Shown: piece by piece, positions 1 through 4,217 of the stretch
Layout: every line of letters begins with the position of its first letter
How positions within the stretch are numbered: position 1 is the stretch's first letter
Assembly (NCBI GenBank): GCA_963674965.2
Contig: CAXXFL010000006.1
Span: 544,001-608,000 of the forward strand
Reading direction: 5' to 3'
Length of the DNA stretch: 64,000 nucleotides
DNA from: a bacterium
Lineage (GTDB): Bacteria > RBG-13-61-14 > DATKZS01
Program-made: the position numbers and the translations under genes
The notes under the pieces: generated by a model
What the model saw: only the letters and a program-made list of their open reading frames with translations
Told to the model about the DNA's origin: nothing
The model's database searches: none

Positions 1-1066
1 CGCACACGGCATCGAAGTTCTCCTTTTGGGCGGCCTCCTCGCTTAGCCCCACGGCCGCGATGTACTTGTCGAAGAGCCTGACCGCCGTGGCCCCGAGCAA
101 TCCCGGGAACGGTATCTCGTAACCCGCCAGCCGCTTGGCCGCCAGACGTCCCTGGATGACGGCCGGTCCGCGAAGCTGGATGGGCACGGGCTTTTTCGTG
201 ACGAAATGGAAGTTCTCGATGCAGTCGCCGGCGGCGATCACGTCGGGGTCGGAGGTCTCGAGGAACTGGTTGACCTTGATCCCGAACCTGCCCATCTCGA
301 GACCCATCCGCTCGGCCAACTCCAGGTTGGGCCTGGCCCCCACGTTCATGAAGACCATGTCCGCCTCCAGGCTTTGTCCCGAACCGAGTTCCACGCCGGC
401 GACCATCCCGTCCTTGCCCAGGATTTTCGTCACCTTCTCGCCCATGCGGAAGGCGAGGCCCTTCTCCGTGAGGTAATCCTTCAGCCCGGCCCCCAACTCC
501 GCGTCGAGCATAAGCGGGAGCGGATGACCGAGCAGCTCGATGATAGTTATCTCGTACTGGCCGGGAGCGTTCTCCATGAGGAGAGTGGCCTGCTCCATGC
601 TGATGAAGCCCGCCCCGATGAACACCAGCCGCTTGGGTTTCTTTTCGGTCAGGAACTTCCTTATCCTCTCGGCGTCCTCGAGGGAGCGCAGGGTGAACAC
701 GCCCTCCAGGTCGCAACCCTCAAGGGGGGGCACGAACGGCCTCGATCCTATCCCCAGCACCAGCTTGTCATAGGCAAGCTCTTTCCCGTCGCTGAAATGA
801 AGTTTTTTAGCCTTGACGTCGACATTTTCCACCTTGGCAACGATCGAGTCAATGCGGTTGTCCGTGAACATCTTGTCCGGGTTGGTGATCGATTCTCCCG
901 TGGCCAGACCGGCCACCACGTGGGGAAGCGCTCACCGCACAATGAAGGTTTTTTCCTCCCGGATCACCGTGACGTCCACGTCCGGCATCAGTTTCCTCGA
1001 GAGCATGGCGGCGGGACCGCCCACTCCGCCGCAGCCTAATATCACAAGTTTCTCTCCCTTTTTCAT
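1..1066 (-). CDS. FAD-dependent pyridine nucleotide-disulfide oxidoreductase (NADH oxidase / CoA-disulfide reductase family), probable selenoprotein; 3' end runs off the window
   Basis: Manual translation from ATG 1066 (AAGGAG RBS 7 nt upstream): MKKGEKLVILGCGGVGGPAA...TFIVR-TGA-ALPHVV...YDKLVLGIGSRP...VFIGAGFISME...ETSDPDVIAAGDC. This has both Rossmann motifs and the FAD TxxxxxxAxGD motif. The single in-frame TGA (codon 45, 932-934) is at the catalytic Cys position; no other stop to the window edge. Confidence 0.92.
897..931 (-). promoter_or_regulatory. Bacterial SECIS-like hairpin downstream of the in-frame UGA
   Basis: UGA-GCGCUUCCCCACGUG-GUGGCC-GGUCU-GGCCAC-GGGA: a perfect 6-bp stem (900-916) with a GGUCU loop like the E. 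coli fdhF SECIS apex, 21 nt after the UGA. UCCC/GGGA can form a lower stem. Confidence 0.8.
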
Positions 1067-1284
1067 GGGCCATCTCCTTTTTAATTGCTTTTACTTATGA
1101 ATAAGTATCATCTTTCCCACGTCATTGGCAACATATCCTTCCCCATAATCACGCGCCCTTTTGGCAAACGGGACTCCAAATATTATAAGGCGGATGACAA
1201 ACACCTTCTCCAGGGCTAAGGTAATAGCGCATCGGAAGCGTGAAAGCCTCAAGCCGGGTTTCAAGGAGAATTGTTTCAGTGAAA

Positions 1285-2163
1285 TCATGGCAGTGTGATC
1301 GCGTCCTCCGGGCAAACGTCAACGCAGGAGCCGCACGAAATACAATCGCGCCCGACCACGACGGCCTTGCCCTTGCTCAAGCTAATCGAGTTATTGGGAC
1401 AGACGTCAACGCAGGCCCCACATCCCGTGCAGAGTTCGCGGTCAACGACGGCCGCGGGGGAAGCGGACCCCATTCCTTCCAGTTGTTGAAGACGCCCCTT
1501 GATTTCATCCAATCGCCGCGCCAATACATCAACCTGCCCCTGGAGCATGGTCCTTTCGTCCATGGGAGCCGCGGCCGCCTCGGGCGTCGATTGAGTTGTA
1601 CCAGCGTTGGAAATTCCACCCATGCCTCCACCCATTCCCCGGCCCGTGCCCATCCCCATTCCGCGACCCATGCCCATGCCCCGGCCCATGCCCATGCCTC
1701 GGCCTCCGCCCATTCCGCGACCCATCCCCATTCCACGGCCCATACCCATTCCGCCGCCGGCCGCCGGCTGCGCCGCGCTCTGAGGATTTCCCGCTACCAT
1801 GCCCATGCCGAAATGGCCGGCAACGCTGGGTTGGCTCGCGGTGGAATAGGCCCCATTGCTGAAATTATGCACCGCCTCGCGGACGAGGCCTGAAACGCCA
1901 ACGACGACCTCGACGCCGGCGGCGGAAAGCGTCTGGTGAGCGTTGGGGCCGCAGTTCCCCGTAAGCACGTATTTCACTCCCTTTTCGGCCATTAGCTGAG
2001 CCGACTGGATACCGGCTCCGCTGGCGGAAGAAACGTTTGAGTTTTCCACCGCCTCGAAGCTCAAATCATCGGTATCCACGATCACGAAGAATGAGCATCG
2101 GCCGAACCGGGGATCTACCGGAGATTCCAAAGACCGCCCATTAGCGCTTACCGCGATTTTCAT
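1285..2163 (-). CDS. NifB/NifX-family cluster-binding protein fused to a Gly/Met-rich linker, a coiled coil and a C-terminal 2x[4Fe-4S] ferredoxin
   Basis: N-terminal MKIAVSA...VDPRFGRCSFF...GAGIQSAQ...LTGNCGPNA; GMGMGRG repeats; C-terminal CTGCGACVDVCP and CISCGSCVDVCP. Confidence 0.88.
   Translation of the reverse strand: MKIAVSANGRSLESPVDPRFGRCSFFVIVDTDDLSFEAVENSNVSSASGAGIQSAQLMAEKGVKYVLTGNCGPNAHQTLSAAGVEVVVGVSGLVREAVHNFSNGAYSTASQPSVAGHFGMGMVAGNPQSAAQPAAGGGMGMGRGMGMGRGMGGGRGMGMGRGMGMGRGMGMGTGRGMGGGMGGISNAGTTQSTPEAAAAPMDERTMLQGQVDVLARRLDEIKGRLQQLEGMGSASPAAVVDRELCTGCGACVDVCPNNSISLSKGKAVVVGRDCISCGSCVDVCPEDAITLP
1615..1758 (-). repeat. Intragenic low-complexity (GMGMGR)n repeat
   Basis: Encodes GGGMGMGRGMGMGRGMGGGRGMGMGRGMGMGRGMGMGTGRGMGGGMGG, with a degenerate 18-nt period. 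Confidence 0.9.
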
Positions 2164-2295
2164 TAGAATAAAGGCCTCCTTTTCCGGAAAAAGCGGGGAA
2201 AATCGTCCCCGTCATTTCCAGACAAAATAAAATGATCAATCAATCCGAGCCAAGCCATCCCTCGTTAAAGCGCTTGGTACAGGCCGCGGTATTTC

Positions 2296-2673
2296 TCAAC
2301 TTTCCCCGTTACCCCCTTGAATACGACGTCGGCGGCCGCAGCACCCGGGCATTAAAAAGGAGTCCTCCGAGAATCCGCCGCTTAAAAATACCCTGACCAC
2401 GTCATCAACCGGTCCGCAGGTGTGAGGAATTACTTGAACACCGGCGGACGAAAGCGCCATTTCCAAGGGCCAGGAAATTGCGCCGCATATGAGAACGTCA
2501 ACGCCAACTCCCGAGATTTCCCGGGCTCGCGAAAAAGGGTCCTGAAAGAACAATTTCTTCTCGACGCGGCCGGCCTCTTTCCCGCCTACCGCCTCTATCA
2601 CCAGCAATTTCCTTGCGACGTCCAAAACCGGAGAGACGCGCCTTTGCCAAATCGGAAGAGCAACCTTCATCAT
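2296..2673 (-). CDS. Small NifB/NifX-family protein
   Basis: MKVALPIWQRRVSPVLDVA...VDVLICGAIS...MPGCCGRRRR, the typical partner of PAS-sigma54 activators in deltaproteobacteria. Confidence 0.82.
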   Translation of the reverse strand: MMKVALPIWQRRVSPVLDVARKLLVIEAVGGKEAGRVEKKLFFQDPFSRAREISGVGVDVLICGAISWPLEMALSSAGVQVIPHTCGPVDDVVRVFLSGGFSEDSFLMPGCCGRRRRIQGGNGES

Positions 2674-2685
2674 TTATTTATTTAG

Positions 2686-2700
2686 GCAATCAATGTGCCG
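2686..2700 (-). promoter_or_regulatory. Sigma54 (-24/-12) promoter for the NifX-family genes
   Basis: Minus strand CGGCAC-ATTGA-TTGC matches TGGCAC-N5-TTGC and lies next to a sigma54 activator gene. Confidence 0.75.
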
Positions 2701-2777
2701 ACAATTATAAAATCCCCTAACTGGCCTTTTTCAAAGGATTATTCAAATTGAATAACGGCCATGCAATCATCCGGATA

Positions 2778-2824
2778 TTCGCAAAATGCGATTTATCCAT
2801 GTATTATCGGTTGCATTTTGCGAA
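2778..2824. promoter_or_regulatory. Pair of candidate upstream activator sites
   Basis: TTCGCAAAATGCGA (2778-2791) and inverted TTGCATTTTGCGAA (2811-2824), 80-125 bp upstream of the sigma54 promoter. Confidence 0.65.
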
Positions 2825-2846
2825 ATTAAGGCTAGCCTAAAAGGAT

Positions 2847-4217
2847 ATGAAAAAGACCCTGGACAAATCAAAACGCGAATGCCAGGACGTGATCCTGGAT
2901 TCTATCAATGAGGGGGTTTTTACCGTCGGCCTGGATTGGCGGATCAGTTCCTTTAATCGCGCCGCTGAAATCATCACGGGAGTAAGCCGGGAAAAAGCGG
3001 TGGGCCACGCTTGCTACGAGGTCTTTCGGACCAACATCTGCGAAGACTCCTGCGCGCTGAAAAAGACCATGTCCACCGGCGAGCCGATCGTTAACGCCAC
3101 CGCGCATATCGTGACCGAGTCCGGAATCCGCGTCCCCATCCGCGTCTCCACGGCCTTGTTGAAAGACGATCATGGAGTGGTGATCGGGGGCGTGGAGACG
3201 TTCCAGGATTTGACCCAGGTGGAACGGCTTCGAAAGGAACTGGAGGCCCGGTACACCTTCGAGGACGTCATCGGCCGGAGCCAGGCCATGACCGAGCTTT
3301 TCCAGATTCTCCCGCAAATCGCCGAAAGCGATTCCACGGTATTGATCGAGGGAGGCTCAGGCACGGGCAAGGAGTTGTTCGCTCGCGCTCTTCACAACTT
3401 GTCTCCTCGCAAAAAAAAGCGCTTCGTGCCCGTGAATTGCGCGGCCCTTCCCGATACTCTTCTGGAGTCCGAGCTTTTCGGATACAAAGCCGGGGCCTTT
3501 ACCGACGCGAAAAAAGACAAGCCCGGCCGTTTCGCCCTGGCCGATGGGGGCACGATATTTCTTGATGAAATCGGGGACGTCTCACCCGCCATGCAGGCCC
3601 GGCTGCTGAGGGTACTCCAGGACCAGAAGATTGAGCCTTTAGGCTCGGTCGAGCCAATCCAGGTGAACGCTCGAGTGGTGTGCGCCACCAACAAGGACTT
3701 GACCAGGCTCGCCCGATCGGGCAAGTTCAGGGAGGACCTTTATTATCGGGTCCGGGTTATCCATCTCAAGCTGCCTTGCCTTAAGCGGCGCCGGGAGGAT
3801 ATTCCCCTCTTGGTGGACCACCTGATCGGCAAGTTCAACCTGCTCCAGGACAAAGATATAGCCGGGGTTTCGGGAGCGGTCATGGCCCGACTGATGGAGC
3901 ACGATTTCCCGGGTAACGTGCGTGAACTCGAGAACGTCATCGAGCGAGCCTTCGCTCTCTGCCGGGGAAACATGATCGAAATGCATCATCTGCCCGCGGA
4001 CCTCCGGCCTGATGAAGTCAAAATGGGAGAGCACGGTTCCGCCACCACGCTCGATTCCATGGAAAAGATAATGATCACCGAGGCGCTCAGGCGCTGCCAG
4101 GGCAATAAAAAACAGGCCGCCCGGGAACTCGGCGTTAACGCCAGCACGATATACCGCAAGATCAAAGCCCTGGGAATCGAGCCTCCCGAACGCCGACGAG
4201 AGACCCTCAAAAAATAA
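2847..4217 (+). CDS. PAS-domain sigma54-dependent transcriptional activator (Fis-type HTH)
   Basis: N-terminal PAS; Walker A GGSGTGKE; ESELFGYKAGAFTDA; FLDEIGD; FREDLYYR; FPGNVRELEN; C-terminal HTH. Confidence 0.95.
   Translation: MKKTLDKSKRECQDVILDSINEGVFTVGLDWRISSFNRAAEIITGVSREKAVGHACYEVFRTNICEDSCALKKTMSTGEPIVNATAHIVTESGIRVPIRVSTALLKDDHGVVIGGVETFQDLTQVERLRKELEARYTFEDVIGRSQAMTELFQILPQIAESDSTVLIEGGSGTGKELFARALHNLSPRKKKRFVPVNCAALPDTLLESELFGYKAGAFTDAKKDKPGRFALADGGTIFLDEIGDVSPAMQARLLRVLQDQKIEPLGSVEPIQVNARVVCATNKDLTRLARSGKFREDLYYRVRVIHLKLPCLKRRREDIPLLVDHLIGKFNLLQDKDIAGVSGAVMARLMEHDFPGNVRELENVIERAFALCRGNMIEMHHLPADLRPDEVKMGEHGSATTLDSMEKIMITEALRRCQGNKKQAARELGVNASTIYRKIKALGIEPPERRRETLKK

Follow-up and report, generated by a model that had tools for sequence, protein, structure and literature searches.

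A predicted selenocysteine-containing flavoprotein of the CoA-disulfide/persulfide reductase type, truncated at its in-frame UGA in public databases

The window analyzed here is a 64,000-nucleotide (nt) stretch of a bacterial contig (GenBank CAXXFL010000006.1, positions 544,001 to 608,000 of the forward strand), and its first 1066 nt contain, on the minus strand (1066..1), codons 1–355 of a gene of 450 codons. This gene very probably encodes a 450-residue oxidoreductase dependent on flavin adenine dinucleotide (FAD), of the CoA-disulfide reductase (CoADR), persulfide reductase, and NADH oxidase/peroxidase type, in which the catalytic Cys is replaced by selenocysteine (Sec, U), as judged from sequence comparison and a structural model. 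Translation of the minus strand (2..1066) with TGA read as U gave a 355-residue read-through in which U45 is the sole nonstandard step (FIVR-U-ALPHVVAGL). A preliminary description of this DNA had claimed that the only stop in the 355-codon frame is TGA at codon 45, and this was confirmed at 934..932. The whole gene spans G000:C6:545066..543717, and its true stop, which is also TGA, is at codon 451. A GGAG Shine–Dalgarno motif (1077..1074) is located 7 nt before the ATG at 1066. The features of this region, including the predicted selenocysteine insertion sequence (SECIS), are as follows.

1..1066, minus strand: Pyr_redox_2 flavoprotein gene, codons 1–355 of 450, based on the translation, PF07992, the PDB homologs, and the model; it extends past the window start to G000:C6:543717.
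932..934, minus strand: UGA codon 45, predicted Sec, at the site of the single redox-active Cys of the family, based on the alignment to the catalytic Cys and the TGA of the orthologs.
900..916, minus strand: SECIS apical hairpin, stem 916..911 with 905..900 and loop GGUCU 910..906, based on pairing, frozen synonymous sites, and the loop of the FdhA-like gene.
884..936, minus strand: extended stem in the minimum-energy fold of this copy; the UGA lies within GGUGA (936..932), which pairs with UCACC (888..884).
917..919, minus strand: GTG codon 50, the start chosen by gene callers, inside the SECIS region; the open reading frame (ORF) is 2..919, and its 401-residue product P0003 begins with MVAGL.
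1074..1079, minus strand: ribosome-binding site AAGGAG, read from the sequence, 7 nt upstream of the ATG at 1066.

In the PDB sequence alignments, position 45 aligns with the active-site Cys of 6pfz (RCGLPYYV), 6ruz (ACGLPYV), and 3iwa (GCGIPYYV). Among the best 120 matches in a collection of 5.8 billion proteins, 16 are full-length orthologs (99–100% query coverage, 449–478 residues, 59–64% identity), and all of them have Cys at position 45 in the motif FIVR-C-[SA]-L-P-Y. The codon had been proposed to stand at the redox-active Cys of the family, and the TGA does pair with Cys in these three structures and 16 orthologs. The accompanying expectation of a CxxPY-type motif held for the active-site position and not for the motif itself, which is U-A-L-P-H here; in this subfamily, the residue at +4 is His with Sec and Tyr with Cys.

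Conservation of the TGA was analyzed in a scan of one genome per GTDB species, which was seeded with two peptide patterns (IGAGFISM and AAGDC[IV]EN) and found 185 loci encoding relatives, of which the best 80 were analyzed. The TGA is present at the codon-45 column, as R-TGA-A-L-P-H, in all 66 orthologs that cover the site (58–81% identity). The other 14 loci comprise two that start downstream of the site (L113 and L117) and 12 homologs with 31–37% identity (L118–L129), all with Cys in a GCGLPY-type motif. The carriers are mostly labeled Desulfobacterales, Desulfobulbaceae, Desulfocapsaceae, and Syntrophobacteraceae in the record titles. When 60 related genomes were searched, all four genomes of the window genome's own family were found to have an ortholog with 75–81% identity and exactly one TGA (FIVR-TGA-ALPHVVAGL); these four are also counted among the 66. 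In 63 sequences, the majority match was 0.871 for codons 1–44 and 0.786 for the rest, and codons 1–44 still vary synonymously. Two orthologs, L060 (a metagenome-assembled genome labeled Acidobacteriota) and L114 (Desulfothermus okinawensis JCM 13304), keep the TGA and the hairpin, and their frames end at 395 and 244 residues, respectively, which may be due to a frameshift or a draft-assembly error.

In the read-through protein, Pyr_redox_2 (PF07992) matched with an E-value of 6.7e-53 and 180.4 bits against a gathering threshold of 26.1, and Pyr_redox also matched. The best NCBIfam models were CoADR equivalogs, with TIGR03385 at the top, and the best PDB sequence matches were 6pfz, 6ruz, 3iwa, 3icr, 4fx9/3kd9, and 8a56 (E 4.5e-60 to 2.4e-49). 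Modeling of the read-through sequence with AlphaFold2 from an alignment of 46 sequences gave one confident fold (predicted local distance difference test score, 92.8; predicted template modeling score, 0.90). The top Foldseek matches were persulfide and CoA-disulfide reductases (6pfz, 3icr, 5l1n, 4fx9, and 8a56), with template modeling scores of 0.89–0.92 normalized by the query. In the model, residues 6–36 form the first strand–helix–strand (β-α-β) unit, and position 45 is located just before the helix of residues 47–51. This agrees with the placement in CoADR-type enzymes, where the first Rossmann unit is followed by a helix that begins with the single redox-active residue (Cys or Sec), near position 43. 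The model and the homolog alignment together indicate that the 44 codons before the TGA encode an integral part of the FAD-binding fold, not a leader.

Downstream of the UGA, 15 nt are followed by a hairpin with the 5′ arm GUGGCC (916..911), the loop GGUCU (910..906), and the 3′ arm GGCCAC (905..900). The loop had been reported to follow the UGA by 21 nt, which is exact when counted from the A of the TGA to the first loop base. The SECIS of Escherichia coli fdhF is likewise a hairpin with the apical loop GGUCU that lies within the coding region immediately after the UGA. The local fold of this copy has an energy of −27.0 kcal/mol compared with −20.0 ± 3.1 kcal/mol for shuffled sequences (z = −2.23; 5 of 200 shuffles as good), and the fold energy alone is thus modestly better than chance, which is suggestive but not decisive. 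It is the comparison of orthologs, not the fold energy of a single copy, that places the hairpin beyond chance. When the 75 nt surrounding the UGA in this copy were aligned without gaps to those of the 66 orthologs, the six apical pairs showed standard pairing in 97.7% of 396 cells, and 25 cells were changed on both sides. A control in which the 3′ arm was slid by one to three columns gave only 16–48% pairing, and the observed pairing and covariation were reached by none of 500 shuffles. The pair of columns 30 and 42, which are third positions of codons 51 and 55, is GC in 39, AU in 19, and GU in 8 sequences; that of columns 29 and 43 is UA in 35, UG in 25, and CG in 6. Neither is unpaired in any sequence. 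At the latter pair, the amino acids also covary, as Ala or Thr at residue 51 occurs only with Ala at residue 56.

The synonymous sites of the three central hairpin codons are frozen. These codons, 52–54 (Ala-Gly-Leu), cover the loop together with the three stem pairs next to it and the first base of the 3′ arm. Codon 52 is GCC in 63 of 63 sequences, codon 53 is GGT in 60 of 63, and codon 54 is CTG in 58 of 58. Such invariance was otherwise seen in only 3 of 193 conserved-residue codons, all of them two-fold Gln codons. The outer pairs (columns 9–12 with 56–59) are present in most orthologs, largely as G-U; conservation is poor in the central part of the extended stem (helix 1, 67.7% paired). 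The compensatory changes and frozen synonymous sites among the orthologs bear out the interpretation of this hairpin as a SECIS.

In the genome, which is 97.6% complete, contig C4 carries selA (558 bits) with selB (378 bits) and tRNA-Sec (69.5 bits) as neighbors, all above the curated cut-offs, and ARAGORN identified the tRNA as tRNA-SeC with the anticodon tca. With selD (361 bits, also above its curated cut-off), the whole Sec machinery is present, as the proposal of a selenoprotein requires. The selD gene, located at G000:C1:1052858-1053775 (+), has one in-frame TGA itself (SASG-U-AAKLGPG). Another single in-frame TGA (ART-U-HAPTV) was found in the gene of an FdhA-like molybdopterin oxidoreductase at G000:C3:524265-525539 (−), and it is followed by a GGUCU-loop hairpin, UCACC-GGUCU-GGUGA. 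The apical loop just 3′ of the UGA is thus common to the two genes, and it starts 21 nt after the UGA on a 6-bp stem in the flavoprotein gene and 18 nt after the UGA on a 5-bp stem in the FdhA-like gene. All four sister genomes contain both selB and tRNA-Sec. In genome G001, they were observed twice with identical scores, on contigs C41 and C42, which is probably because of a duplicated contig in the assembly. A crude scan of the window for further genes with a read-through TGA, with Pfam searches on three candidates, found none that was convincing; one of the candidates was rejected as a sulfatase preceded by an unrelated frame.

The Cys pairing, the TGA in all 66 orthologs, the conserved hairpin, and the Sec machinery support the earlier proposal that the UGA is read as Sec, and other explanations of the TGA were weighed against the same evidence. 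A single early in-frame stop resembles a pseudogene, and gene callers indeed treat the gene in this way (P0003). A nonsense mutation, an error of sequencing or assembly, or a decaying pseudogene is nevertheless hardly conceivable as the origin of the TGA: the codon stands at the same column in 66 of 66 orthologs from other genomes, purifying selection is seen on both sides of it, and a coevolving hairpin follows it. In addition, independently built Logan contigs from two runs of one sample (DNA; possibly the source of this DNA) have identical letters, with 0 differences over window positions 1–1100. It is also very unlikely that translation stops at UGA45 and that the functional product is the 401-residue protein from GTG codon 50, possibly together with a 44-residue peptide. 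Such a product would match the database call P0003, and 104 of the best 120 relatives likewise cover 86–90% of the query, but it would lack both the GxGxxG FAD-binding β-α-β unit (residues 6–36 of the model) and the catalytic residue. Codons 1–44 are moreover in frame, conserved, and aligned with full-length homologs, and GGAG precedes the ATG at 1066, whereas the GTG lies inside the hairpin without such a motif.

The remaining possibility concerns the identity of the inserted residue. Stop-codon read-through and TGA reassignment exist in bacteria, and the residue inserted at a UGA is invisible in the sequence alone, so that UGA45 might be read with a standard residue (near-cognate Trp, Cys, or Arg, or by a reassigned code). 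We consider this to have only a very small probability, because TGA is an ordinary stop here, ending the gene in three of its five closest orthologs (TAA in the other two), and because selA and selB have no internal stops. The complete Sec machinery, the hairpin loop common to the FdhA-like selenoprotein gene of this genome, and Cys, the usual counterpart of Sec, as the homologous residue also argue against a standard residue.

Several results weigh against the assignment of the gene as a selenoprotein of this type. A control with RF01852 was also above the cut-off in genomes without recognized Sec use, and the tRNA-Sec call therefore rests on ARAGORN and the position next to selB. No Rfam SECIS model matched 780–1000, where only microRNA and long noncoding RNA models were found (E 1.3 and 9.5); these two matches were taken as chance. 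The seed patterns of the ortholog scan fit Sec-type and not Cys-type sequences, so that the sample is biased toward Sec forms, and the 66 of 66 measures the stability of the TGA within the lineage, not the rarity of Cys forms. As to the family, the score for TIGR03385 (CoADR) was 211.1 bits against a cut-off of 578.8, that for NF007123 was 177.7 against 458, and that for the H2O-forming NADH oxidase model NF046103 was 141.7 against 600. The protein is related to CoADR, and its equivalog scores are far too low to classify it as one. Finally, the neighborhood of the gene is not conserved, which makes any substrate assignment a guess.

Here, we propose how the Sec-containing enzyme may be made and act. 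The hairpin 3′ of UGA45, with its GGUCU loop, would recruit SelB with Sec-tRNA(Sec), and Sec would be inserted in place of termination; this recruitment step is suggested by the presence of the machinery and by the conservation of both the UGA and the hairpin. The best-supported function, as far as homology indicates, would be that of a reductase of the persulfide/CoA-disulfide type that depends on NAD(P)H and FAD and uses Sec as its redox-active nucleophile. Electrons would pass from NAD(P)H to FAD and then to Sec45 at the start of the helix of residues 47–51. Glu177 is located at the end of the second Rossmann strand, and this suggests NADH as the cofactor. Sec45 may cycle via a selenenic-acid or mixed selenenyl-sulfide state and thereby reduce a small sulfur or oxygen substrate. 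This chemistry and the substrate are extrapolated from homology only; the substrate is most likely CoA persulfide, polysulfide, or disulfide, and peroxide or O2 would be the alternative.

The relationship of Sec and Cys forms was analyzed in a quick maximum-likelihood tree of 86 rows, which comprised 65 Sec forms including this gene, 16 Cys forms, and 5 distant outgroups; the tree excluded L060 and L114 (<400 residues) and the two loci with an incomplete N-terminus. The subfamily forms one long, fully supported branch, and judging from these sequences, the clade is tight and mostly Sec-bearing. Within it, an unresolved three-way fork separates 11 Sec forms including this gene, 15 Cys forms, and 54 Sec forms with one Cys form, P0031, nested among them (93 in the Shimodaira–Hasegawa-like approximate likelihood ratio test). 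The well-supported branches force at least two switches between Sec and Cys, and three are most parsimonious. The collection contains 13 genomes of the window's phylum, and with this query no Sec ortholog was found in 8 genomes of the other four families of the phylum. The patchy distribution, with Sec orthologs in the window's own family and under the labels Desulfobacterales, Desulfobulbaceae, and Syntrophobacteraceae, suggests lateral transfer. At one locus, L079 from an uncultured Desulfopila sp., a Cys-type paralog with the motif VPCGIPYMF (1711-3198, +) was observed directly upstream of the Sec gene.

Position 49 is the only column that splits the Sec and Cys forms without exception: all 67 Sec forms have His there, and all 16 Cys forms have Tyr. 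Since the nested P0031 also has Tyr49, the His/Tyr coupling has recurred at least twice. A strict coupling of Sec with His across the whole family was ruled out by a 37%-identical Cys homolog (P0137) with C-A-L-P-H. Toward the C-terminus, Cys occupies position 423 or 425 in all 16 Cys forms and in 63 of the 64 Sec forms whose sequence extends that far. In this C-terminal region, the protein has MCAGNPDCSSEPS in place of the AYAPP[YF]S of 6pfz and 6ruz; the Tyr of AYAPP aligns with Gly425 here, and 52 of 64 Sec orthologs have Cys at this position. This Tyr presumably belongs to the part of the CoADR active site that comes from the partner subunit. Mutants of Tyr361, Tyr419, and Cys43 of Staphylococcus aureus CoADR are present in the PDB, according to the structure titles in the Foldseek list. 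A more speculative possibility, which we regard as rather unlikely, is that the clade is a tight persulfide/CoA-disulfide-reductase-like subfamily with a selenium center of its own, in which Sec45 and Cys423/425 would form an inter-subunit selenenyl-sulfide. If true, this would be a feature not described for this enzyme group.

The preliminary description had also warned that standard gene callers would truncate the gene, and the database protein at this locus, P0003, is indeed a 401-residue form that starts with MVAGL at GTG codon 50 and lacks the FAD-binding N-terminus. The truncation is widespread. The 104 short forms among the best 120 database matches have 388–409 residues, and the three that were read (P0003, P0022, and P0030) all begin after codon 45. 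Two short forms in GenBank, MBS3754389.1 (404 residues) and MDZ7762690.1 (405 residues), are both named "FAD-dependent oxidoreductase". In an exhaustive library clustered at 50% identity, the subfamily has one representative, a 403-residue short form, and the next cluster is 42% identical. A search with the N-terminal region for annotated full-length Sec records found no U-bearing record among the only 294 candidates scored, a number that makes the result uninformative. The gene call is thus incorrect at this locus and for most of the relatives in public records. Neither the FAD-binding fold nor the active site is included in the short models, so that a selenium-dependent redox enzyme would be missing from metabolic reconstructions of these anaerobes.

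The genes on the two sides encode a Nitro_FeMo-Co/4Fe-4S protein and a CGGC-domain protein. The upstream neighbor (window 1285-2163, −; 292 residues) has an N-terminal Nitro_FeMo-Co domain (PF02579), a Gly/Met/Arg-rich repeat (GMGMGRGMG..., DUF5320), and a C-terminal ferredoxin domain with two [4Fe-4S] clusters. Farther upstream, a 125-residue ORF at 2296-2673 (−) had no Pfam match, and a divergent PAS/sigma-54 activator is encoded at 2847-4217. The CGGC-domain protein (PF08821, E 4.6e-20) is encoded next to the flavoprotein gene on its downstream side, outside the window, at G000:C6:543258-543602 (9258-9602 of L019, minus), and beyond it is a protein of the 4Fe-4S and nitroreductase families (8075-9064 of L019). 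Among the 66 orthologous loci, the CGGC protein was matched in 9, Nitro_FeMo-Co-like proteins in 11 and 5, the sigma-54 activator in 13, and nitroreductase and acyl-CoA dehydrogenase in none. The only recurrent flanking cluster was a PAS/sigma-54-type regulator (19 loci). Gene context was rejected as a functional argument because the neighbors are present in few of the 66 loci.

Sec forms of NADH-oxidase-like proteins had been said to be known from surveys, and the family does appear, as "NADH oxidase" or "CoA-disulfide reductase", in the selenoprotein tables of PMC1794560, PMC9312934, PMC1976440, and PMC13188914. PMC1794560 lists an "NADH oxidase" selenoprotein family with one sequence, from Geobacter metallireducens, and PMC1976440 lists a single Sec sequence of NADH oxidase in the delta-1 symbiont of Olavius. 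In the table of a 2026 review (PMC13188914), the family is given with TIGR03385 and the motif UGxP. PMC1242214 does not mention the family. The G. metallireducens representative, WP_011365774.1, is assigned to COG0446/TIGR03385 with the listed Sec motif UGxP. It belongs to the same superfamily as the present protein, and by this listed motif alone, its Sec would be at the same Cys-x-x-Pro place, with U-G-x-P there and U-A-L-P-H here. No other TGA-bearing homolog, such as one of the UGxP type, was found in the 13 genomes of the window's phylum. Given its place in these tables, the kind of protein is already known, and this gene is another member; it leaves the knowledge of selenoprotein families and UGA recoding unchanged.

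What the present analysis would add is a tight and mostly Sec-bearing clade, its truncation throughout the databases, and the occurrence of Sec with His49 where the Cys forms have Tyr. Its value lies in the correction of a widespread truncation and in a clean natural comparison of Sec-His and Cys-Tyr forms, whose second residue covaries four positions on. The role of Sec in a persulfide/CoA-disulfide-reductase-type site can be tested in cultured carriers, namely Desulfofustis glycolicus DSM 9705, Desulfoprunum benzoelyticum DSM 28570, Desulfatitalea alkaliphila M08but, and Desulforhopalus sp. IMCC35007.

With the solved single-Cys flavoprotein reductases, the protein shares the fold, the Rossmann units for FAD and NAD(P)H, and the location of the catalytic residue. 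The solved enzymes are Archaeoglobus fulgidus persulfide reductase (6pfz), Pyrococcus horikoshii CoA persulfide/polysulfide reductase (4fx9/5l1n), Enterococcus faecalis CoA-persulfide reductase (8a56), Bacillus anthracis CoADR-RHD (3icr), the Thermus thermophilus enzyme (6ruz), NADH peroxidase (1npx), and NADH oxidases (2bc0/5er0). The present protein differs from them in having Sec instead of Cys, with only 22–32% identity in the structural alignments, and in having no rhodanese extension. The best-known selenoenzyme of the pyridine-nucleotide-disulfide oxidoreductase superfamily is animal thioredoxin reductase, which is likewise a flavoprotein that passes electrons from NAD(P)H to a selenium center. 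The animal enzyme keeps its N-terminal CxxxxC disulfide and has Sec in a C-terminal GCUG tail, whereas in the protein described here, Sec is predicted to replace the N-terminal active-site residue itself.

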